IMG/VR virus record: IMGVR_UViG_2711768040_000017
Origin: a virus
Lineage: Duplodnaviria; Heunggongvirae; Uroviricota; Caudoviricetes
Reading direction: 5' to 3' (one strand)
DNA: 19,081 nt
The notes under the pieces were generated by a model. It was not told the origin of the DNA, made no database searches, and saw only the letters and a program-made list of their open reading frames with translations. The translations under genes were made by a program, and so were the position numbers. Positions 1 through 16,609 of the stretch are shown here, piece after piece (within the stretch, counting starts at the first letter, position 1; each line of letters starts with the position of its first letter).

Positions 1-2667
1 TCAGCTGATACTGATGCCTGCGGTGGCTTTCTTCATCACCACAACCAGCAAATCGCTGATACTTGCTGTGGGATACCAGTCATTTACCAGCCATGCTGAC
101 ACCGAAAACTCCAGCGTCATGTGGCCGTGACCAGCTGGCATATCAATAACACCACTGTAAATCAGCGTATTATCCAGCGCGGTACGGTTATAAATTTCAG
201 CACCATTTTTCTTCACTATCAGGCGGCATGAGGAGTAAATATCAGTATGCTCTCTCTCATGTTTAGCACCGCTGAATGCCACCGCCGGAATAACAATCTG
301 CCGGTCAAACGGCTGATCGTCATAAATCCTGACGGTAATGGTCCCTGATGGCCACCGCTCCGGTGCCCGGGAGTCCCGCGGGAAAGCCTTACCCACTGTT
401 TTGACAATATCGCCTTCAATCTGGTTGGCTGACAGTTTCCCTTTAATCTGACAGTTCTCATTTATCGTAACGTTGTTGAGCGTCCCGGCGTTCGCATTCA
501 CACTGCCACTGATATCTGCATTTTTAGCGGTCAGCTTTCCGTCCGGTGTCATGGAAAATGCAGGAGGATTACCGCCGCTGGTAATGGTGGGAGCCGTCAG
601 ATATTTCAGGAACACTTCATTCATGAATATCTGATCACCCTGACCAACAAACATCGGTTTTGTGTTGCCATTTGCAGGATTAATCATCGCAATCCTGTCT
701 GCCGCCAGCAGCACCTGACTCTGCATGCCGTCGGGGGTGTTCTCAATACCGGCACCGATACCCGCGATATAAAGGCGTCCGTCCTGCATCTGCTGCAGCT
801 TCACAGCCCACATGCTGTTCAGATTATTATTTGTATCAACCTGAACCTTCTGTATCTGCTGGATCGCTGCACTCTGGTCTTCCAGTTTCTTATTGACGGT
901 CTGTGTGATTTCATTGCTGACATCCGTAATGGACGTCCTGATTTCAGCCAGGTCAGGCGCAAGCTGACCGTTATCAATCTGCGTCCACAGCTCCTGAGCC
1001 AGATGGGTTTTCCCTATCTCGCCTTTGAAAAAATCCAGATAGCCGGATGCGTCATCACTCGGCTGACCAACAGCCTCCACGAATGCCGATTTGCCAACGG
1101 TGTTCACACTGCGAACGTAAAAATAATAATTATGGCCCGGCCTGATATTGATACTGGCGGCTATCCAGTACAGCGCCGTACCAAGATAGCGGGCTGTGGT
1201 TTCAACCTGCCTGATATCCGCAATCCGCTTTTCCGAGAACCAGAACTCAAACTGTACCGTCGGGTCATAAACGGCAAGATGCGGCGTGGCGGTTATCTGA
1301 AAATAGCCCGGCGTCAGCTCAAGCCGCGACGGCACTGCAGGTGCGGCAATCCGGAACGATACCGATGCCGGATCGCCCTGCTGCCCCCACGCATTTACCG
1401 CCCGGACTGTCAGCCTGTAGTTCCCTGGCGCCAGCTGCGTGAAGCGGTATGTGGTTTCCGTCGTCCGGGCCGTGCTGACCAGCCGCTCACTGCCGTCATC
1501 CGCTGCCACGGTCAGGCGAAGCAGGAAGCTCACGCCCTTCACCACCTTCGGCGTGTCCCAGCGCGCCAGCACCTGATATTCCCCGCTGTCTGCGGTGACT
1601 TCGGCGGTCAGGTGCTGCACCGCTGGCGGCGTGACACCATTCACCGTGCCGCTCTGGTCGCCGTCAAAGTGCGCCCCGTTATCCACGATGGCTTCTTTTT
1701 CCGGTACATGCTGCACGGCAGTGATGGCATACGTGCCGTCATCGTTCTCACGGATACTCACACAGCGGAACAGGCGCTGGCGCAGCGTCGGCAGCTTCAG
1801 CCCCCACACACTGTATTCTGCAACGCCGTCAGGAACCCGGTTCACTTTCACCTTAAGTCCGTCGGTGACGGACTGAACCTCCACGCTGACCGGATTACCA
1901 CTTCCGTCAACCAGGCTTATCAGCGTGGTACCGGAGGATGGCAGCGTGATTTCACGGTCGAGCGTCAGCGTCCGGGTCTGGCTGTTCACCGCCAGCACGC
2001 GACCACCGGTGCTGATACCGGCATAGTCATCATCGCAGATTTCAATGACATCCCCCGGTACATGGCGAAGCCCTTCCGCACCCACGCTGAAGTCCACGGT
2101 CTGCGTCTCCAGCAGTTCCGTTTTAATCAGCCACAGCCCGGCGCGGTGTGCCTGCCCCCGGCTGGTACAGCCAAAGGCATCCATCTTCGTGACATTACGA
2201 CCGTAACGGGCAATGGCCTGCGTATCTTCAACAAGCTCTGTCGCCGTCTCCCAGCCGTTGTCCGGGTCAATCCAGTTCACCTCAACGGCATTATGGCGGT
2301 CCTTCAGGGCGCTGAAGCTGTAGCGGAACGGCGCGCCATCATCCGGCATCACCACATTACTGCGGTTATAGGTGATATGTTCTGTCGCTGACCACGTTCG
2401 ACACACCACTCTGATTTTTCTGTTAATACCCGGCGGGCGCCAAAAAAAAGATTTATAGCCTTCATGCCGGGCTAAAAATTTTTCAAATGAATCACGTTCA
2501 TTCGCCTCAACTTTGAAATCACAGGTGAAAACGCGCAGAGAATGATTAAGTCCATTTGGACTTCGTTGCTCATAACCATCGCCAAATCTTACAGTTTTTA
2601 TCGATGGTTTATTTTCTGTTTTCATTCCATCCTCTGGTAACCAGTGAAATTCTTCCGTATTAGCCAC
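1..2667 (-). CDS. J: Chimeric tail-tip ORF: gpM-like N-terminus (~95 aa) fused in frame to the C-terminal ~790 aa of host-specificity protein J (central tail fibre). Probable GTG start overlapping the tape-measure stop.
   Basis: N-terminus ([31 protein letters not shown]) parallels lambda gpM motif for motif. From ..[37 protein letters not shown].. onward it is near-identical, as recalled, to lambda gpJ up to a diverged C-terminal receptor-binding end. Stop codon at 1-3. Confidence 0.8.
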
Positions 2668-6058: not shown

Positions 6059-6379
6059 CTACACACACTGCTCCTGAAAATACTGGTCATCCAGTGCAAA
6101 GATCACTGCTTCAAATTCATCGCGCTCAATCAATACCGGATGAGTGGCTAAATATTCATTTATCTCTGTCAGAGATAAAGGCAAAGGCACCCCAGCCATT
6201 CCAGCATAACGTCGGGCACGGGATATTACCGAATAGGCGTACAACAACTCCTTAAGCACCGGGTCTATTTCTGGTTCCGGTATCGGTGGCAACCTGAGTT
6301 TTTCTCGCTTCCATCTTGCCTTTTCCCCCCTTTCTCCCCCGAACTCCGATAACCACCGCTGGGCAGCTATGGCTTTTTT
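6059..6379 (-). CDS. T portion of tail assembly chaperone GT, reached by -1 frameshift from G; not independently initiated
   Basis: After slipping at aaaaaag, the -1 frame (gcc ata gct gcc cag cgg ...) runs uninterrupted into the 77-aa ORF frame (ttg cca ccg ata ccg = LPPIPEPEID) and ends 165 bp upstream of the tape measure gene. Confidence 0.55.
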   Translation of the reverse strand, partial: KKAIAAQRWLSEFGGERGEKARWKREKLRLPPIPEPEIDPVLKELLYAYSVISRARRYAGMAGVPLPLSLTEINEYLATHPVLIERDEFEAVIFALDDQYFQEQCV

Positions 6380-6801
6380 ATCGTATCCTGCTTCTGCTGC
6401 TCTTTACCCTGGGCGATGCTGGCTGCTTCTGCAAGGATCTGCCAGTACAACTCTGGATTCTGCTTAAGCAGCGCGATCCCTCGTTCTGCCGTATATTCCA
6501 GTGCAACCTCAACACCATTAACCAGTTCACCAACCCCTTTCCAGTCTTTCAGCAGATAACGAGCGGCATTATCAATGAGTAAATCATCAACAGAATCCAC
6601 CTCGGAAACCTTTGAAATATCAAACTCCTTCGTTCCGACGTGCAAACTGGCATCCATTTTCTCAATGTGGCGACGGATTAATGCATTACGGGAGCGATAC
6701 TGATCGTTATCGCTGCTTGCCACCAACAGTTTTAACCCGTCTATCCAGACTGCATGAGCAATTGATTCATCACGCAGCCGTTCATTCACGGTTTGCATCA
6801 T
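6367..6801 (-). CDS. Tail assembly chaperone (gpG-like), 144 aa
   Basis: Acidic small protein immediately upstream of the tape measure gene; its last codons (ata aaa aag cca tag) contain a canonical slippery heptamer. MMQ start, ATG at 6799-6801. Confidence 0.55.
   Translation of the reverse strand: MMQTVNERLRDESIAHAVWIDGLKLLVASSDNDQYRSRNALIRRHIEKMDASLHVGTKEFDISKVSEVDSVDDLLIDNAARYLLKDWKGVGELVNGVEVALEYTAERGIALLKQNPELYWQILAEAASIAQGKEQQKQDTIKKP
6373..6379 (-). other. Programmed -1 ribosomal frameshift slippery heptamer A_AAA_AAG (G to GT)
   Basis: Plus-strand ctttttt at 6373-6379 is aaaaaag on the minus strand, two codons before the G stop; the -1 frame is open for ~100 further codons. Confidence 0.55.
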
Positions 6802-8188
6802 TGATTTCCATCAACATTACACTCTGATTTTTTAATTCATCGATCACATCCTCTGGACGGGAATCCTGATCGATAAATTTCAACGCCTGCAACACCCGAA
6901 CCGCATCAATCTGACGTATATCACCGCCCTGACGCAATGACTGAACAGCCAGCGCGGAGGATGAGTCAAACACCTGGGCAGATACATCCAGTTCAGTGCG
7001 CACATCCACATTGCCACCGCAACTCTCTCCGCTCCATTCCGCCATTATCTGGAGAATATTATCGAGGGCATCTTCGAGGGAGTTCGCCATTGTATAAAGC
7101 GGCGAGTGTTCCTGCATCCGCTCTTCATTAGTCTGATCAACAGATTTGGTGGATGTATTTTCAGCCCGCAGAAGTTTAGCGCCGGCATGACGCATCTGAT
7201 TTTCCAGCTTCTCAAGTGATGTTTCGCCAGATTCTATCGCTGCGCCACTATGTTCAACATATTCGAGGCCATTTTTTGTTCTGTCCTCAAAAATCGTAGC
7301 CGTGGATGCACCAACCGTCAGTTCTTCATTCCTGTCCAGCCCGTAGGCCACCAGCAATGGAACGCGGGCAACATGAAGAATATTGTCCTGCTCGCTCTGG
7401 CTTTGCCAGTGCTTGATATTCAGCAAGCCAAGATTAAGCAATGGCGGTGTACCACGCATAAACCCTGTTTTCTTCGTATACAGTGTTACCAGAGGAATAT
7501 CATCACGGCTGGTATTCCATGACTCATGAAGCATCCAGACAGATTCGCCATTAGTACCTTCGCTGCGTCGATAAATTTCTACTCGACGGGGCATAATATG
7601 GCGGATCTGCTCCACCTTCTTCTGCCCGAAATCATCACCATCAATAATGATGACCTCTTTTATACGCAAATCAGTGAGAACAACTTTCCCTTTTTCAACT
7701 TTCGATTTCCATCCAATAACCTGGCGTGGATTCAGCATCGTAACGTACGGGCGACCACCGGCCGCGTTTTCATCGGCTTTTGTCCGAATCTCGTTCATAT
7801 CCGTTCGTGGATAGTCCACCAGCGCATGTGCCACACCATACTGAAATGCGAGACTGAAAAATTGCTGCGCCCACACATCCAGTCGGCTCCCCTCCATGTC
7901 GATATTTTCTGCATATTCCCTGATTTTTTCCGGCGTTTCCTCACTCAATACTGTCGGCTCTGCAAATATGCGCCCAATATTTTGTTTGATGCTTTCTTCA
8001 TACACAGGAAGTAACGTAGCCACAGACAGGCGTTTTTTATAAGCGTCTTCATCTTCATTAGGCCATTTGGGGAGATAATTTTCCCCCTGCCTGCGCATTT
8101 CAAGCGTACCGCCCATCAATGCGTCGTTAATATCCCACGCCTCCAGCATATCGTTATAGTCGAGGTTGGGTGTTGATATATCAGCCAT
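6782..8188 (-). CDS. Putative portal protein (468 aa), possibly C-terminally altered
   Basis: Starts 4 nt inside the end of the terminase large subunit gene (coupled), with portal-typical size and position. No specific motif recognised by eye. Its last 6 codons overlap the G chaperone start. Confidence 0.45.
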   Translation of the reverse strand: MADISTPNLDYNDMLEAWDINDALMGGTLEMRRQGENYLPKWPNEDEDAYKKRLSVATLLPVYEESIKQNIGRIFAEPTVLSEETPEKIREYAENIDMEGSRLDVWAQQFFSLAFQYGVAHALVDYPRTDMNEIRTKADENAAGGRPYVTMLNPRQVIGWKSKVEKGKVVLTDLRIKEVIIIDGDDFGQKKVEQIRHIMPRRVEIYRRSEGTNGESVWMLHESWNTSRDDIPLVTLYTKKTGFMRGTPPLLNLGLLNIKHWQSQSEQDNILHVARVPLLVAYGLDRNEELTVGASTATIFEDRTKNGLEYVEHSGAAIESGETSLEKLENQMRHAGAKLLRAENTSTKSVDQTNEERMQEHSPLYTMANSLEDALDNILQIMAEWSGESCGGNVDVRTELDVSAQVFDSSSALAVQSLRQGGDIRQIDAVRVLQALKFIDQDSRPEDVIDELKNQSVMLMEINDANRE

Positions 8189-8190
8189 AA

Positions 8191-9501
8191 TTAAATCCGA
8201 AGTGATGTGACTCTTCCGGTCGGTTTGACAATAGGGAATTGCTTAACGATGAAATAACCTCCGGCATCATTCGGGTGATCATTGCCAGATTTTTTATCAG
8301 GCTCCCCCTTATCATCCCAGACCTGTTGCTCCAGAGATTCGGCATATACCGGACAACGCTTCACATTAACTTTATAGCGACGCTCACCATTGGCATTGCA
8401 GAACATTGCATTCATTGAGTTAACGCGATCTTTTACTGGCGGGTTCGAGCTGTTCACCACAACGTTAAAACCTGCCTGCTTAAGCTGGGCTATATCCGTC
8501 GTACTTGCGTTACTTGATTTTCTGGAATCTCCGGAAGCATCTGGATAAATATAAATCTCCCTCACTTTCCGGTAATCATGCCCGTCATACAGCCAGAAGC
8601 GTTCTTTAATGAGGCGGATCATATCCGGCGTATCGTAGGCATTGATGATTTCAGTTACCGCACATGGAAGCCCCAAACGCAGCACATGGACGATTCCCGC
8701 CATCTTTCCAACGTTAAAATCCATCCCAATATAAATCGGCTCCCCTGGCTGCTCCACTTCTTCGCAATTATTCAGTTTCCGGTCAAACTGATGGTAAACA
8801 GTACCACTTGTCAGGTTAGTAAACCGTCCTAGAAGATAGGCTTTAATCAGCTCTGGAGGGTATGATTCAAGAAGTGAAGGAATGTAATCTGCTGGCAGGT
8901 TCTTTTCATTATCGAAAGTAGATGCCTGCACCAGACCATACAGTGAGGCCAGCTCTGTTTTTTCACGCACGGCTTTAACAAACTGCTCGTAGACAAATTT
9001 GAATCCTTCCGGCGTGGTTGTAACGTCAATACCGTTGCGAAGTCCATCAATCTTATAACGCATACGCGCAATTATCTTGCGCCACGCCGTTCTGGCTTTT
9101 TCCTTCGGCAAAATGTCCAGTTCATCCACCAGCGCATTACCAATTTTGAAACCGACGATCGTTTGTGGCTTCTCCATCGATCTGCAGATAGTGGTTCCCC
9201 GATACTGGCGTCCGTAATAAAAGTGAACCTCTTTATTTCCCTCATTAATTTTTACGTTCAATCCCCAGTCAGCAGCAACTTCTTCCACTGTAGGGTAAAA
9301 AATATCGCGAATTTGGGGATACGTTGGCGCAAAATATCCCTGATTTATACCTGGATGCTCCCAAATCCCCTTGCATATGCCGCCACACCCAACCCATGTT
9401 TTGCCCGAGCCAAAACCAGCAATATAGGCTTTAAATTTATGGGGCATTGAAAGAAATCGCGCCTGAGGCACATTAAGCGTCGGAGAGATCATCTTCATCA
9501 C
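8191..9501 (-). CDS. Terminase large subunit (436 aa)
   Basis: Walker A P-loop YIAGFGSGKTWVG near the N-terminus, acidic nuclease-type C-terminal half, and position between the small subunit and portal. Confidence 0.85.
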   Translation of the reverse strand: MMKMISPTLNVPQARFLSMPHKFKAYIAGFGSGKTWVGCGGICKGIWEHPGINQGYFAPTYPQIRDIFYPTVEEVAADWGLNVKINEGNKEVHFYYGRQYRGTTICRSMEKPQTIVGFKIGNALVDELDILPKEKARTAWRKIIARMRYKIDGLRNGIDVTTTPEGFKFVYEQFVKAVREKTELASLYGLVQASTFDNEKNLPADYIPSLLESYPPELIKAYLLGRFTNLTSGTVYHQFDRKLNNCEEVEQPGEPIYIGMDFNVGKMAGIVHVLRLGLPCAVTEIINAYDTPDMIRLIKERFWLYDGHDYRKVREIYIYPDASGDSRKSSNASTTDIAQLKQAGFNVVVNSSNPPVKDRVNSMNAMFCNANGERRYKVNVKRCPVYAESLEQQVWDDKGEPDKKSGNDHPNDAGGYFIVKQFPIVKPTGRVTSLRI

Positions 9502-10567
9502 TCCTTAATCTGGCATCAACCACATTAATATTGATCGCCACAGGCTGGGGATGTTCATTATCCTCCACCGTTTCGATCTCTTTGCGCAGCTTCTGGTTCT
9601 CTATTCTGCGCCGTTCAATTTCCAGTTCCTGTAGCCGCTTATCTGCACATAATGCCCCGCCAGCAGAAAGCAAACGCAACAATTCACGCCGGGCGGCAGC
9701 CTTATCCTCCAGCAGGATCTCAACACCGTATTTTCCGAGCTTTGACCCTGCATATAATTGCCGCGCATCCCCATCAAGCAGTGTGGTATCAGCCATATAA
9801 AGCTGTCCTGTTCCCTCACCGCAGCACTTCGGGCAATCAGGATTGGGTATGGCGTTATCAACAAAGCCGAGGCCTCCATATTCCGGCTCGGGTTTACCAT
9901 CTCTGGAGGCCTGTGCCGCAGCCTTATCGAATTCTGCAATATCACGCCACTGGTAGAGATGATTCTCGCCCCAGCAATAACGGCAGTTAACACGGCGAAA
10001 TTGTGCCAACTGATTGGGGTCGGCCTGGACAATGGCCATCAACTGGCTCACCAGTAAATCCAGGTCTGCGGTATAGCGTTTCTGGTACTGATTGCGGAAG
10101 TAGCTGATAGCACGATAAACCCTGGCATTTCTAAGCATACGGCTGGCGTTGCTGTTAGCTGTCGCACCTTGCCCCTCATAACCAGCCAGTCGGTATGCCT
10201 CTGTCGGCTTTTTCCCCTGAGCAACCAACATGGCGAATTTTGCCTGCTGGTCAGAAATACCGAATTCATCGGGGCAGAACGAAATTTCTTCCGTGTCCCC
10301 CTCAATCAGGAGTGCATCGGATACAGCCTTTTTTTTCTGAGATTTTCCGTTCTGCCTTTGCGCAGTCTGCGCAGTTTTTTTTCGCGCACTTTTTTGCGCA
10401 GTTTTGCGCATTTCTTTCTGCGCATTTTTCGGAGTTTTTTTGATGTAACGACGGGCTGTTGCGTAGTTCAGTCCCCTTGCTTCACACCATGCCACCGGAG
10501 ATATACCGGAGCGGGTGTATTCAGCAATATACTCCTGCTGCAACGCCCCCCAGTCCGGTCTGCTCAT
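9473..10567 (-). CDS. Putative terminase small subunit / DNA-packaging DNA-binding protein (364 aa)
   Basis: N-terminal HTH-like segment (..ISPVAWCEARGLNYATARRYIKK..), Lys/Arg-rich low-complexity linker, Cys cluster (CRYCWGENH .. CPKCCGEG), coiled-coil C-terminus; immediately precedes and overlaps the terminase large subunit gene. Confidence 0.45.
   Translation of the reverse strand: MSRPDWGALQQEYIAEYTRSGISPVAWCEARGLNYATARRYIKKTPKNAQKEMRKTAQKSARKKTAQTAQRQNGKSQKKKAVSDALLIEGDTEEISFCPDEFGISDQQAKFAMLVAQGKKPTEAYRLAGYEGQGATANSNASRMLRNARVYRAISYFRNQYQKRYTADLDLLVSQLMAIVQADPNQLAQFRRVNCRYCWGENHLYQWRDIAEFDKAAAQASRDGKPEPEYGGLGFVDNAIPNPDCPKCCGEGTGQLYMADTTLLDGDARQLYAGSKLGKYGVEILLEDKAAARRELLRLLSAGGALCADKRLQELEIERRRIENQKLRKEIETVEDNEHPQPVAININVVDARLRSDEDDLSDA
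10355..10430 (-). repeat. Cluster of six T(T/C)(T/C)GCGCA repeats within the terminase small subunit gene
   Basis: Plus strand carries tttgcgcag, tctgcgcag, ttcgcgcac, tttgcgcag, tttgcgcat, tctgcgcat within ~70 bp flanked by T-runs; it encodes the basic KTAQK/SARKK/TAQTAQRQ linker. Confidence 0.5.
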
Positions 10568-10570
10568 CAG

Positions 10571-10822
10571 TTAGTCCTGATTTTTATCCACCCTGAGTAG
10601 TTCGCGCAGAGCAAAGGCATCCCCTTTTCTGGCAAGCTTAAACAATGCCGCTCGTAACTCGGCTTCACCTTTCGCTCTGCCCTTACGGATGGCCGCATAA
10701 AAATCTGTCATTGCTTCCCGATTTTCTTTCAGTCGGTTCAGATCAACATCCAGAACGTCAGCGATTTGTTGTGCAGTCATCCGGCACGCTGCCAGAGACT
10801 CGACTTTCGAATACGGAATCAT
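10571..10822 (-). CDS. Small hypothetical protein (83 aa) with an HTH-like segment
   Basis: GGGGGTGA Shine-Dalgarno 4 nt before the ATG at 10822; MTAQQIADVLDVDLNRL resembles a helix-turn-helix. Overlaps the upstream gene end by 65 nt. Confidence 0.3.
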   Translation of the reverse strand: MIPYSKVESLAACRMTAQQIADVLDVDLNRLKENREAMTDFYAAIRKGRAKGEAELRAALFKLARKGDAFALRELLRVDKNQD

Positions 10823-11714
10823 TTGTCACCCCCATTGATATGCAGGGTGTCTTCTTCCTGTATTTTTCGTGAAGGATTTTTACTGCAGCGTTGTTCCAGG
10901 TGACCTGATGGTGAATGCGTTTATGGCTGGCACCCATCAGTGAGATTTTTACGCACGACGGCGAATACATGACGGAGTAAAAACTTTTAACGTAGGTTCC
11001 GGAATCCAGATACAGCTCGGTCATTCCGCCGCTGTTTTTCTGCGTCTGTTTCTGCCCTAACTGGACAGCACCGATCGTCATAAACAATTCACCACAGCGA
11101 CCGAGATTCGTGTACGTATTCACATCCTCGTTAATGCGCCCCATGAATGAGAACGGTCGATCAACCGAACAGATAAAGCTGTTCATTGCCTTGCGTTTCA
11201 CCCACGAAGCATGGCCGCCATTGTCACCAAGAAAATCCCCGCCCTGCGACATAGCGATGGAAAGCGCGGGTATTGATTCGTAATACGCCAGCATTTCAGA
11301 AAGGATCGCATCCAGTTTCCTTATCGGGAAATAGGCCTGGTCATAGTTGCGATCCACCCGAAACTGGAACTCGTGATAATCATCATCGAGCTGAATGAAG
11401 TATTTACACCCGACCAGTTTTGCCAGGTCGAAACAGGCATTACGGGCGTAAAAAATTGAGCGGCGATCACCAAAATTATCGGCTTCGTCAAAACGACTGG
11501 CAATATCGGCTTTGGAAAATACCAGCACCTGTTCACCAAATTCAGCCATGTACTGATGCCGTGTCTTATCTTCATCATCAACAACGATAAAAATTTTCCC
11601 GGTATAGCCAGCACGACGCAACGTCCGGTAAGTCAGAACTTTGTCCGGTCGCCCGTGAGTCAGAATAAAGGCGCAAAAATCATCACGCATATTCCTCCTC
11701 CTCCTCCCCGCCAT
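10758..11714 (-). CDS. Hypothetical protein (318 aa) with DXD-type acidic motifs; possible nucleotide-sugar transferase-like fold
   Basis: Hydrophobic strand then Gly (CAFILTHGRPDK), then IFIVVDDEDK and YFIQLDDDYHEF; translationally overlaps the ParB-like gene upstream. Assignment is by motif only. Confidence 0.3.
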   Translation of the reverse strand: MAGRRRRNMRDDFCAFILTHGRPDKVLTYRTLRRAGYTGKIFIVVDDEDKTRHQYMAEFGEQVLVFSKADIASRFDEADNFGDRRSIFYARNACFDLAKLVGCKYFIQLDDDYHEFQFRVDRNYDQAYFPIRKLDAILSEMLAYYESIPALSIAMSQGGDFLGDNGGHASWVKRKAMNSFICSVDRPFSFMGRINEDVNTYTNLGRCGELFMTIGAVQLGQKQTQKNSGGMTELYLDSGTYVKSFYSVMYSPSCVKISLMGASHKRIHHQVTWNNAAVKILHEKYRKKTPCISMGVTNDSVFESRVSGSVPDDCTTNR

Positions 11715-12477
11715 GCATGATCTCCACCATGCGCTGCGTCATTCGGACAAATCCATTTTCAATAGCCTGCTGATAATCAATGATCACCAGCGCCGACTCC
11801 TCGAAAAGGCACTGAATTTCAGCGGGGGCATGAGCGTAATAGTCCGCAATTCTGCTGAAATTAAACACTGTGTGACGTTCTGCCGCACACAGGAGGAATT
11901 TCTCAATATCAGGATCAAGGGACGCCGAACGTATCCGGCTGATCAGCTCCTGAGTTTTCGTATCGTCGTACAGTTCACTGATATCCGGTTTACCGCCCGA
12001 CGGCTCATAAACAGGCGTATCAATTTTCGTCGTATACGGCTCCTCCTCATTTCCTGTACCGGGCAAAACATCCGTCAACAGTTCATCAATTTCTGTCGGG
12101 ATGAAGCCTGTCAGGGAGACATCAAAATCAGCATTGATTAGGTCCGACAGCTCCATCCGCAACAGATCTTCATCCCAGCCAGCATTCATCGGCAGGCGAT
12201 TATCTGCCAGGCGGTACGCCTTTTTCTGCTCATCCGTCAGGCCAGACAGAACAATGACCGGAACAGAATCCATTTTGAGCATTTCAGCCGCCATAACACG
12301 ACCGTGACCCGCAATAATTTCGCCCTTTTCGTCAATCAGCACCGGATTAGTCCAGCCGAATTGCTTAATACTTTCTACCAGTTGTGCCACCTGCTCAGGG
12401 CTGTGCGTCCTGGCGTTGTGCGCATACGGTGACAATTCTTGTAATGGGCGATAGACTATCTTTAATTTCTCGCTCAT
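11683..12477 (-). CDS. ParB-like nuclease domain protein (264 aa)
   Basis: N-terminal ParB/sulfiredoxin-type motif ..NPVLIDEKGEIIAGHGRVMAA.. and acidic C-terminus (GGEEEEEYA). Confidence 0.7.
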   Translation of the reverse strand: MSEKLKIVYRPLQELSPYAHNARTHSPEQVAQLVESIKQFGWTNPVLIDEKGEIIAGHGRVMAAEMLKMDSVPVIVLSGLTDEQKKAYRLADNRLPMNAGWDEDLLRMELSDLINADFDVSLTGFIPTEIDELLTDVLPGTGNEEEPYTTKIDTPVYEPSGGKPDISELYDDTKTQELISRIRSASLDPDIEKFLLCAAERHTVFNFSRIADYYAHAPAEIQCLFEESALVIIDYQQAIENGFVRMTQRMVEIMHGGEEEEEYA

Positions 12478-12504
12478 ACAGCCTTGCTTTATGAATAAAA
12501 CGCA

Positions 12505-12528
12505 CCCCAGCAGCCAGTGCTACTGGGG
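12505..12528 (-). terminator. Possible terminator hairpin downstream of trkG
   Basis: ccccag / ctgggg inverted repeat followed on the minus strand by tgcgttttatt; large loop, so weak. Confidence 0.25.
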
Positions 12529-12614
12529 ACGGAGGGGTTGCTGGTAAAGTTAGGTATTGGATCAATGAGTGAGTCAACATAATATTAAACTCACAATTAT
12601 AAATCAGCCATATA

Positions 12615-14090
12615 TTAGGAGCGCCAAAAAAAACCTGAAAACAATATAATAACAGGATAAATTTCAAGGCGACCAAGAATCATAGCTATGCACATTAAAC
12701 ATTTTGCAATGTCATTAAGCACTCCGAATGACGATGCAGTAGCCCCAAAACCTAATCCCATATTATTAATACATGCAGCCACTGTTGCAAATGATGTAAG
12801 AAAATCATATCCCATACCATTTAACACCAGTATAAAAAACACCGTGAAGAGAGTATAAAGAAAAAAGAAACTCCATACAGACCTCATTACACGATCTGTA
12901 ACTATCTTCCCTCCTACATTTACACTCAACAACGCTCTGGGATGAGAAAGCTGATTTATCTCGTGTTTGCTTTGTTTGAAAAGTATAAGAAATCGAAGTG
13001 ACTTAATTCCACCACAAGTTGAACCTATACATCCCCCAAAGAAACTTGACAACAGCAAAAACACTATCGTGTGCGTGGGCCAACTTGCATAATCCTGCGT
13101 AGCTAAACCATTATCAGTGAGCATGGAGCTGGCAAGAAAAAACGAATGAATAAAACTTCCATGCAAGTCATACATACCTATATGCCAGACCTGGAAAGAG
13201 GTAACAATGATCACCCCTAAGGCTATTAACAGAAAGAAACGAAGTTCAATATCTCTGATTAAAGGTTTTATCGTTTTCCTGCTAATAACAATATACCAAA
13301 GAGTGAAGTTGAAAGCCGATAGCAGGGAAAAAGAACCAGCCACCAGCTCAACCAAATAGTTATTAAAATATCCGATACTCTCGCTATGAGTTGAGAAACC
13401 ACCAAGCGAAACTGTGGAAATCCCGTGACAAATAGCATCAAACAAAGGCATTCCTGCAAGTCTATAACAGACAATACAAGCAATACCTAATAAAGAATAA
13501 GTTATCCACAGTGTCCGTGACGTATCGGCCAGGCGGGGAGTGAGTTTGTCATCCTTAAATGGCCCCGGCATTTCTGACTGATAAAGCTTTGCACCACCAA
13601 TACCCAATAATGGCAATACAGCAACCGCCAGAACAATAACTCCTAAACCACCTATAAAATTTAACTGTGACCGATAGTACAAATATGCCCGAGGTAATGA
13701 ACTAACATCATCAATTACAGTTGCTCCTGTTGTTGTTATTCCAGAAACCCCTTCAAACAGAGCATCAATGAACGTTAAATTAAGTTCTGAGTCAATCCAT
13801 AAAGGGAATGCACTAATAACAGAAAACAAAATCCAAAACATTACAATTATAATAAACCCATCACGGGTACGTAATTGAATGCCAGATTTCTTAGTTGTAT
13901 ACCACGCTCCGCCACCAATGCAAAAAAATATAACGAAAGTTATAAAGAAAACGAACAGGCTTTTTTCTTTATAAAACAATGCTACAACCATTGGTGGCAA
14001 CATTGAAAGACTATAGAGCCAAACCAGGAACCCACACATATGAGTAACAACTCTTACATGAGATGTATTCATATCTAAATATTCTTTCAA
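12615..14090 (-). CDS. trkG: Potassium uptake protein TrkG (Trk-system membrane subunit); true start probably the internal MNTSHVRV at 14072
   Basis: Polytopic membrane protein with repeated pore-loop glycine motifs; translation matches E. coli TrkG as recalled (MNTSHVRVVTHMCGFLVWLYSL..). Markedly AT-rich relative to flanking phage genes. Confidence 0.85.
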   Translation of the reverse strand: MKEYLDMNTSHVRVVTHMCGFLVWLYSLSMLPPMVVALFYKEKSLFVFFITFVIFFCIGGGAWYTTKKSGIQLRTRDGFIIIVMFWILFSVISAFPLWIDSELNLTFIDALFEGVSGITTTGATVIDDVSSLPRAYLYYRSQLNFIGGLGVIVLAVAVLPLLGIGGAKLYQSEMPGPFKDDKLTPRLADTSRTLWITYSLLGIACIVCYRLAGMPLFDAICHGISTVSLGGFSTHSESIGYFNNYLVELVAGSFSLLSAFNFTLWYIVISRKTIKPLIRDIELRFFLLIALGVIIVTSFQVWHIGMYDLHGSFIHSFFLASSMLTDNGLATQDYASWPTHTIVFLLLSSFFGGCIGSTCGGIKSLRFLILFKQSKHEINQLSHPRALLSVNVGGKIVTDRVMRSVWSFFFLYTLFTVFFILVLNGMGYDFLTSFATVAACINNMGLGFGATASSFGVLNDIAKCLMCIAMILGRLEIYPVIILFSGFFWRS

Positions 14091-15634: not shown

Positions 15635-16030
15635 CTAACCTCGCATGTCAAAGCCAGATTTCTGAAAATCTCTGTAGACTTCCGGATTGTTGAAGGCCGG
15701 AAATTTGGCTTTATGAGCTGCGGACTTTATCGCTTCGCAATAGGCTTTATCACCGTTACTGGTAGATATTTTTAACGCCGTGCCATCCTGAGAGAATTCC
15801 ATATGCAACCTGCATTTTTTCCCTTTCCAGTTATGCGGCTCATCAAGTTTGGCATTAATTGCAGCTCTGATTCCCCGCGCTTGCGCCCCCCATTCATCCT
15901 GATCATCCCAGCGTCCTGAACTGCAACTACCTGTAGCAGTAGTTTTGTGGCAATCTGAAGGGTGTAAAGGTGTGCATCCCGCAACAAAACCGACCCAAAA
16001 AGTCAACATAACGATTTTCTTTAATCCCAC
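15635..16030 (-). CDS. Lipoprotein (131 aa) with a diverged TolA C-terminal domain III-like domain; GTG start
   Basis: Signal peptide MGLKKIVMLTFWVGFVAGC (lipobox VAGC); GAGGAG Shine-Dalgarno 6 nt upstream. C-terminal pattern I.AAINAKL...W.GKKC.L...F..DG....S...GD.A.C.A...A...A.FP....PEVY..F parallels the paralog upstream and TolA-III. Confidence 0.55.
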   Translation of the reverse strand: MGLKKIVMLTFWVGFVAGCTPLHPSDCHKTTATGSCSSGRWDDQDEWGAQARGIRAAINAKLDEPHNWKGKKCRLHMEFSQDGTALKISTSNGDKAYCEAIKSAAHKAKFPAFNNPEVYRDFQKSGFDMRG

Positions 16031-16180: not shown

Positions 16181-16609
16181 TCAGGGTTTAAAATCCAGCA
16201 CCCCATTTTGAAATACTTTATATACTTCCGGCGAAGGGGGGGCAGGTATATCAGCATTCTTTATCGCATTCATCGCTTCACGACATAAATCGAGGTCTCC
16301 ACTTTCTCTTTTAACCTCCAGTAGAAGGCCATTCGGGGCCATATGCATTCTCAGTGTACACTCTTTTCCTGAATACTTACTCGCATCCCCGAACTGTTTT
16401 TCGATGGCGCTCTTGATTTGATGGGCATACAGACGGATATCCTCACTAACATCAGAAGTACGTTCAGATGAACTCACATACTGTGTCTCTATTGCTTTAT
16501 CGGAGTAATATGATGTACGGTCATGATAATTTGTCGATACAGCATCAGTGCACCCGATAATAATCCCACTAATAATCAACGTAAGAATTGATGCGCTACG
16601 AAAACCCAT
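16181..16609 (-). CDS. Lipoprotein (142 aa) with a TolA C-terminal domain III-like domain
   Basis: Signal peptide MGFRSASILTLIISGIIIGC (lipobox IIGC, Thr at +2). The C-terminal 85 aa (YAHQIKSAIEKQFGDASKYSGKECTLRMHMAPNGLLLEVKRESGDLDLCREAMNAIKNADIPAPPSPEVYKVFQNGVLDFKP) align almost residue for residue with the E. coli TolA C-terminus as recalled (YAGQIKSAIESKFYDASSYAGKTCTLRIKLAPDGMLLDIKPEGGDPALCQAALAAAKLAKIPKPPSQAVYEVFKNAPLDFKP). Confidence 0.7.
   Translation of the reverse strand: MGFRSASILTLIISGIIIGCTDAVSTNYHDRTSYYSDKAIETQYVSSSERTSDVSEDIRLYAHQIKSAIEKQFGDASKYSGKECTLRMHMAPNGLLLEVKRESGDLDLCREAMNAIKNADIPAPPSPEVYKVFQNGVLDFKP

Follow-up and report, generated by a model that had tools for sequence, protein, structure and literature searches.

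How small terminase subunits choose their own genome is poorly understood. In phage lambda, cosB carries several R-elements that are bound by the N-terminal winged helix-turn-helix (HTH) of gpNu1 beside the cut site; these elements are ~16 bp long, mostly intergenic and IHF-assisted, and serve a cos (fixed-end) system. In phage P1, the annotated record places the hexamer TGATCA/G in pacA at nt 194, 201, 213, 228 and at nt 324, 336, 347, 375, flanking an IHF site (nt 256-268) and the mapped cuts (nt 276-285). The P1 hexamers contain Dam sites, methylation regulates cleavage, and synonymous recoding cuts the P1 titre ~9-fold (PMC10028697; see also PMC11260489). The terminase small subunit (TerS) of SPP1, G1P, contacts multiple short sites, and its pac site overlaps the TerS gene itself, at the 5′ part coding for the DNA-binding domain (PMC6316719), while in P22 mutations at wobble positions of pac impair packaging (PMC11260489). 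Here we analyse an array of palindromic hexamers inside the TerS gene of a tailed-phage sequence, IMG/VR record IMGVR_UViG_2711768040_000017 (Caudoviricetes), whose full 19,081 bp we call the window. An earlier sequence-only reading had proposed a candidate pac (packaging-initiation recognition) site at this position, and comparative evidence supports it: since the hexamers are kept at the DNA level and track a single HTH residue, the HTH is homologous to that of PacA, and the design is shared with P1, we put at roughly 0.7 the probability that the array is the pac site of a Rac-type lambdoid phage lineage.

The pattern TYYGCGCA occurs eight times in the window, with six of the occurrences clustered within 10357-10424 on the + strand (10357-10364, 10366-10373, 10381-10388, 10393-10400, 10403-10410 and 10417-10424). 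This interval, the candidate pac recognition element, lies in the TerS gene (9473-10567, - strand, 364 aa), and the pattern scan bears out the six copies of T(T/C)(T/C)GCGCA in ~70 bp described in the earlier reading. The core unit is better defined as the hexamer TGCGCA, which is its own reverse complement; the T-runs around the hexamers are the complement of A-runs from lysine codons. Numbered along the coding strand, copy 1 (10419-10424) is read as aaT-GCG-CAg (N-A-Q), copy 2 (10405-10410), alone of the six in another frame, as aTG-CGC-Aaa (M-R-K), and copies 3 (10395-10400), 5 (10368-10373) and 6 (10359-10364) as T-A-Q. The sole variant is copy 4 (10383-10388; CGCGCA on the + strand, TGCGCG on the coding strand), which encodes S-A-R and is an exact TGCGCA (S-A-Q) in most relatives. 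Copy 6 has been lost from one E. coli clade through a synonymous GCG>GCA change.

Start-to-start distances between the hexamers on the coding strand are 14, 10, 12, 15 and 9 bp. Because the window-wide total of TGCGCA is ordinary (11 seen, 8.2 expected), the signal of the array is its clustering, with five of the 11 packed into 66 bp. Tandem Repeats Finder returned imperfect periods of 10, 12, 24 and 36 across the array, with indels. We ruled out a clean tandem duplication, given these imperfect periods and indels and spacings that are not all multiples of three.

Hexamers and the peptide they encode

The same sequence-only reading had offered as its alternative that the repeat might simply mirror the basic linker it encodes (KTAQK/SARKK/TAQTAQ). 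Selection of a basic repetitive peptide at the protein level would suit the four of six window copies that read x-A-Q or x-A-R in one frame, and a lysine-rich linker fits a DNA-binding tether. This explanation is effectively refuted by the out-of-frame position of copy 2 and by codon resampling. When linker residues 44-72 were resampled synonymously, five TGCGCA arose in none of 100,000 trials (maximum four, in 26 trials), and permutation of the gene's own synonymous codons gave five in none of 20,000.

The requirement beyond coding extends across relatives. We compiled 57 genes of the R type defined below, one per species or phage, in which TGCGCA is found 281 times against 37.4 expected from the proteins (7.5-fold); in 44 of these genes the observed count was reached in none of 2000 resamples. 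All three reading frames are used, with 203 of 271 TGCGCA copies read as xxT-GCG-CAx, 56 as xTG-CGC-Axx and 12 as TGC-GCA. Every one of 35 distinct linker alleles from viral contigs keeps four to six copies, and the codon ahead of copy 2 is ATG, GTG or TTG in relatives (M/V/L-R-K) with the hexamer unchanged. Klebsiella prophage homologues with 38% protein identity carry six TGCGCA at the matching position of the gene, again in all three frames (T-A-Q, P-A-Q, L-R-T, C-A-E). The related hexamer TGCGAA, found in what we call K-type genes, encodes N-C-E-T in Pasteurella phage Pmp11 (nine copies) and the unrelated S-A-N-S in enterobacterial K-type genes, and the DNA palindrome TGCGAATTCGCA in which it often occurs has no protein-level rationale. 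Rather than keeping the linker and losing the nucleotide repeats, relatives keep the hexamer while the peptide drifts. The hexamers are maintained at the DNA level beyond coding need, and the encoded peptide is subordinate. Within E. coli, sites that vary among close relatives make up 4 of 36 hexamer positions (11%), 18 of 72 in the linker spacers (25%) and 52 of 90 just downstream; the contrast between hexamers and spacers is modest at this depth, and the deeper comparisons carry the argument.

The palindromic hexamers might instead serve hairpins in mRNA or single-stranded DNA, for translational control or RNA stability. A 106-nt RNA from the array gives a fold of three hairpins, in each of which two neighbouring hexamers pair, at -29.5 kcal/mol (z = -3.6; none of 200 shuffles as good), although any set of palindromic GC-rich hexamers gives this outcome trivially. 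Copy number (3-8, often odd) and spacing vary freely among relatives, so no hairpin is conserved, and no compensatory changes that preserve pairing while altering the hexamer were seen there. The direct TGCGAA arrays of the K type (nine in Pmp11) cannot pair mutually, and the proven P1 site is palindromic too. We regard a hairpin function as very improbable.

Equally improbable, in our judgement, is a neutral origin in which replication slippage or unequal recombination within an A-rich stretch of low complexity built the array and the hexamer has no function. The spacers differ in sequence and in length (9-15 bp, not all multiples of 3) with the hexamer constant, and the hexamer is kept across genera, TerS core types and frames and switches as a set with the recognition helix. 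Slippage would nonetheless explain the imperfect periodicity of the array, the gains and losses of whole copies and the A-run frameshifts in some relatives (L039, L045, L046, L074, L079), and a deletion joint within the array of phage Rac-SA53.

Two kinds of natural variant deserve description in their own right. In three viral contigs (L046, L079, L080), ±1 frameshifts in A6-A8 runs between the hexamers truncate TerS with all hexamers intact, marking the A-tracts as slippage-prone. In Rac-SA53 (L006, KU052037.1, locus 1450-2478), the two parts of an annotated gpO-terS deletion fusion meet exactly at hexamer copy 2 (…E-V-R-K-T-A-Q-K…); the fusion lacks the HTH domain and retains a degenerate array with two exact TGCGCA.

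The N-terminal domain and its residue 39

The gene that holds the array is identified as terS by profile matches above threshold and by its position immediately upstream of the terminase large subunit (TerL) gene. The protein matches Pfam Terminase_2 (PF03592; E 1.2e-8, 36.1 bits, cut-off 26.1) and, over its full length, phrog_51 (E 6e-75), and it is so annotated in E. coli genomes and phages. It comprises a PacA-like HTH domain at the N-terminus (aa 1-44, 10436-10567, - strand), a K/Q/A-rich linker that is predicted to be disordered and is indel-rich in relatives (aa 45-99, 10271-10435, - strand), and the Terminase_2 core (aa 122-316, 9620-10204, - strand). The array occupies aa 48-70 of the linker, with its onset 12 bp past the last codon of the 44-residue domain. 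An AlphaFold model predicts three helices for aa 1-44 (predicted local distance difference test, pLDDT, 74-81), pLDDT below 50 for aa 45-93, and a confident helical domain at aa 100-165. Since the overall model is poor (shallow 15-sequence alignment, mean pLDDT 50), it served for domain boundaries only. A sequence search of the PDB gave a marginal match (E 0.13) between the Terminase_2 HTH region (aa 108-163) and the Pam5 small terminase.

Profile comparisons reveal homology between the N-terminal domain and P1 PacA. The first 80 aa of TerS match positions 3-71 of phrog_1711 (E 1.2e-4), a family that PacA itself matches at E 4e-202, and both proteins match phrog_370. Using hhalign, 14 of the HTH domains aligned with the N-termini of P1 and JK004 PacA over 43 columns at 94.6% probability (E 7e-8). 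Full-length BLASTP between TerS and P1 PacA was not significant (E 0.11); we dropped direct BLASTP homology at that value, and the homology that the profiles reveal is confined to the N-terminal domain (~43 aa).

The recognition helix of this domain (...LNYATARRYIKK, aa 33-44) contains the residue that tracks the hexamer, R39. A scan of one genome per species for the N-terminal domain gave 73 Enterobacterales loci and one from Vibrio. R-type genes, with the helix ...(T/S)ARR(Y/H)(I/V/L)K..., have 3-8 TGCGCA and at most one TGCGAA, whereas K-type genes, with ...(T/S)AKRYIK..., have 4-7 TGCGAA/TTCGCA, often as the palindrome given above, and at most one TGCGCA. The rule has no exception across at least four TerS core types of 196-365 aa. 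Across 75 HTH domains, residue 39 is the only fully discriminating column, being R in 60 domains with TGCGCA and K in 15 with TGCGAA. Over the rest of the domain the two types do not segregate (mean identity 0.79 among K domains, 0.75 among R domains and 0.73 between types), and the closest pairs of opposite type are 95-98% identical. At the DNA level such pairs are 93-95% identical to about codon 35 and then diverge abruptly, so the recognition helix and the array form one mosaic block, as a functional helix-plus-site module predicts.

Starting from the motif led to the same helices. Of 121 sampled clusters in viral contigs, a cluster being three closely spaced TGCGCA, 73 lie directly 3′ of an in-frame xARR(Y/H)xK helix, and all 73 are R-type; two of the others are at contig ends, and the rest are microsatellite-like repeats, intergenic operator-like sets and iterons. 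The corresponding scan for TGCGAA found five helix-linked clusters among 122, all five AKR-type, and is informative for these five cases only, the other 117 being unrelated tandem repeats from giant-virus and metagenome contigs. Individual phages follow the rule. TGCGCA occurs in two clusters in the R-type genes of the Stx-type phages GER2 and PhiR12_3, and TGCGAA is the hexamer of the K-type phages Providencia PSTCR3, Klebsiella RothD and Pasteurella Pmp11, the last with nine copies. The pairing of R39 with TGCGCA and of K39 with TGCGAA is a useful regularity that is apparently undescribed.

Two further loci came to light in this survey. One (L082, locus 1501-2640) encodes a TerS of like core (61% identity) with a different N-terminal domain (…HSWGTAKNHITIK…) and has, at the corresponding position, three ATCGCGAA(T) units read in two frames, a pattern that looks like a third pairing of helix and motif. 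The other, in an unrelated high-GC viral contig (L206, ~10400-10520), has five TGCGCA plus TTGCGCC-type variants in the C-terminal part of a winged-helix open reading frame (ORF); this ORF is replication-initiator-like, and the arrangement recalls origin iterons embedded in an initiator gene.

From these comparisons, the array is probably a recognition array for the TerS HTH, a claim that we hold somewhat more firmly than its function as pac. A different binder, be it a host factor, a restriction-modification enzyme or the ParB-like protein encoded next to terS, is improbable. Genes for a ParB_N protein and a glycosyltransferase lie directly upstream, ParB proteins do bind clustered palindromes, and TGCGCA is an FspI-type site containing GCGC. 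The array nevertheless follows TerS and not its neighbours: Klebsiella relatives have it without the upstream ParB and glycosyltransferase genes, and hexamer arrays are likewise kept without these neighbours in relatives from Yersinia, from Pasteurella and of the Stx type. A TerS residue is what the hexamer tracks, and the TGCGAA arrays are not palindromic.

That the TerS HTH binds the hexamers for a purpose other than packaging initiation, for example autoregulation within its own gene, is unlikely, though less so than the rivals above. The coupling of HTH and hexamer names the binder and not the purpose, and the TerS of SPP1, besides initiating packaging, uses pac to repress its own synthesis (PMC6316719). 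A position 140-210 nt inside the ORF would be odd for a promoter operator, and the only experimentally characterised homologous arrangement, P1 PacA with TGATCA/G, is a packaging site. The two roles may also coexist, by analogy with SPP1.

For the pac reading, we propose the following mechanism. The three-helix HTH (aa 1-44) would be tethered by the ~55-residue flexible linker to the Terminase_2 oligomerisation core, so that several HTH domains of one TerS oligomer could each bind one hexamer. Specificity would arise by avidity, with the hexamers 9-15 bp apart and A-tracts between them. The complex of TerS and array would position TerL for a first cut nearby, after which headful packaging would ensue. 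The motif may be housed in the disordered linker since this segment tolerates almost any peptide. We infer TerS-hexamer binding, the start of packaging at the array and the headful mode from sequence and analogy.

Several points weigh against the pac reading. A 2022 review points to the difficulty of demonstrating specific TerS-pac binding even in P22, SPP1 and Sf6 (PMC9611059), and a full-text literature search found nothing on TGCGCA arrays, on pac sites of Rac- or Stx-type TerS, or on packaging ends or TerS-DNA binding in this group. Single copies are dispensable, as natural alleles with TGTGCA, with synonymous TGCGTA or TGCACA, or with whole copies deleted attest. Because helix and array adjoin in one mosaic block, physical linkage may yield part of the R39/K39 covariation, and independent switches between the two are few. 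Residue 39 is not a universal code, since P1 itself has T-A-R-R-Y and reads TGATCA. The hexamer also differs from that of P1 in being TGCGCA and not TGATCA/G, with no obvious methylation switch; as it lacks GATC, a P1-style Dam control cannot apply. P1 pac includes an IHF site, whereas a crude consensus scan for WATCAANNNNTTR found no match on either strand of terS and the 333 nt upstream of its start codon (9473-10900). The window holds no second hexamer cluster, only isolated hexamers with one mismatch in or near terS. Finally, the prophage in the window is defective: compared with its intact relative vB_EcoS-683R6, it is without head-morphogenesis, scaffold/coat, connector and tail-tube genes. 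Without capsid genes the array cannot at present serve self-packaging here, and it is probably a well-preserved relic of a lineage whose intact members use the element.

A broader reading, to which we give slightly less than even odds, is that the PacA-like HTH (or its recognition helix) and the array form a portable packaging-specificity cassette, recombined onto at least four unrelated TerS cores in Enterobacterales, Pasteurellaceae and Vibrio prophages, including Stx-converting phages, with R39 or K39 reading hexamer base 5 (C/A). The mosaic boundaries at the start of the recognition helix bear on this reading. If it is true, packaging specificity would be predictable from sequence and could be reprogrammed by one substitution together with a recoded array, and the family would lend itself to the study of how TerS recognises specific DNA sequences, a question that model phages have yet to answer. 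Even short of this, the family gives a sequence-level handle on genome choice, combining a short countable motif, a natural R39/K39 specificity pair in HTH domains that are 95-98% identical, and a proven homologue in P1. The design is widespread, occurring in E. coli, in phages of Klebsiella, Yersinia, Providencia and Pasteurella, and in those of the Stx type. With a defined pac site it would be easier to predict which prophages can drive generalized or lateral transduction and to design packageable plasmids.

Gene neighbourhood and state of the prophage

The window is a Rac-type lambdoid prophage of E. coli. Its gene set includes a Q-like antiterminator, lysis genes, a TrkG-like transporter, ParB_N, a TET-associated glycosyltransferase (TAGT), terS, terL, portal, tape measure and J-like genes. 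Several E. coli chromosomes match the 5′ part of terS at 100% identity, and this region is present in 883 of 5,426 complete E. coli genomes. The TerL gene (8191-9501, - strand; Pfam Terminase_6N and Terminase_6C) overlaps the end of terS and encodes the presumed nuclease/ATPase partner, and the portal gene follows (6782-8188, - strand; Pfam DUF4055, phrog_145). The nearest phage relatives of TerL, at 40-52% identity, are siphophages of the Kagunavirus, Jerseyvirus and SO-1 types, which are headful packagers; headful packaging would be expected in this lineage from its TerL type and these relatives.

Two fusions mark the losses from the prophage. In an ORF at 6367-6801 (- strand), a tail assembly chaperone (phrog_313) is preceded by the ~25 N-terminal aa of a head-morphogenesis protein (phrog_241); at this position vB_EcoS-683R6 has ~6 kb of head-morphogenesis, coat, connector and tail-tube genes. 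In the ORF at 1-2667 (- strand), gpJ tip-attachment domains follow a gpM-like minor tail N-terminus (aa 5-96), which implies that the L/K/I-like genes have been lost.

Between the lysis genes and terS lies a cargo block (10758-14090, - strand), made up of a TrkH/TrkG-like K+ transporter (12615-14090), the YnaK-like ParB_N protein (11683-12477) and the TAGT (10758-11714). The window showed no TET/JBP dioxygenase and no DNA methyltransferase, and TAGT::TerS fusions are present among database proteins (P0039, P0041). Directly upstream of terS, an 83-aa ORF (10571-10822, - strand), annotated as hypothetical in relatives, matches positions 145-218 of the 319-position small terminase family phrog_309 (E 8e-23); it could be what is left of a terS that was displaced, or else encode a small accessory protein. 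Two adjacent ORFs between the Q-like antiterminator and the holin, at 15635-16030 (131 aa) and 16181-16609 (142 aa), both on the - strand, encode TolA C-terminal domains (E 1e-14 and 2e-23). These may be phage mimics of TolA, acting for example in superinfection exclusion or in interference with colicin or phage entry.

Comparison with described packaging sites

The lambda cosB arrangement resembles the one proposed here in pairing repeats with the N-terminal HTH of a small subunit, and differs in its longer, mostly intergenic elements, its reliance on IHF and its cos mode. The pac site of P22 likewise lies inside the small-terminase gene of a headful-packaging temperate phage of enterobacteria. 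It is one asymmetric, non-repeated 22-bp site, however, whereas the array consists of six copies of a 6-bp palindrome and contains no single asymmetric site of ~22 bp, and the TerS families are unrelated.

SPP1 pac (pacL-pacC-pacR) is similar to the window in having multiple short sites at the end of the TerS gene that encodes the DNA-binding domain. Its sites lie on either side of a defined cleavage box and extend over promoters and the ribosome-binding site, whereas the iterated hexamers here lie wholly within the ORF, 3′ of the HTH segment, and their recognition is attributed to an additional PacA-like HTH.

P1 differs from the window in several respects besides those already weighed. Its pac function is proven, where that of the array is predicted. 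The core of the recognition subunit is of the Terminase_2 type here and not PacA, and its partner is a T4-like Terminase_6 TerL and not PacB. The window has a single cluster of six hexamers, against seven in P1, set as 4+3 on the two sides of the cut. Relatives with a Klebsiella-type core do carry a second TGCGCA cluster ~150 bp downstream (59 observed against 9.9 coding-expected, 31 genes), which consists of 2-4 TGCGCA at gene nt ~340-430 (L002-L005 and 27 further loci), where the folded core reads V-A-Q-A-I-A-Q, and the Pmp11 and Stx-type genes are likewise bipartite. To judge from their sequences, these two-cluster relatives have a P1-like bipartite layout, unlike the window's own gene.

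The likenesses to P1 are the closest of the comparison. Both loci have an array of one palindromic hexanucleotide in the gene for the recognition subunit, soon after the segment that encodes a homologous N-terminal HTH domain. In a P1-type site one would look for at least three to four copies of one hexamer in ~70 bp of that gene, and the window has five TGCGCA and one TGCGCG within 10359-10424. The spacings are irregular in both (7, 12, 15 and then 12, 11 bp in P1; 14, 10, 12, 15 and 9 bp here), and the hexamers are read in more than one frame. In both, too, they are held independently of a linker peptide that drifts; on the P1 side the positive control is Cronobacter phage JK004, whose PacA is 70% identical to that of P1 and keeps the hexamers in a linker of unrelated peptide sequence. 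By sequence and by analogy, the array would thus belong to a known kind of packaging site, the iterated-hexamer pac sites of the P1 style.

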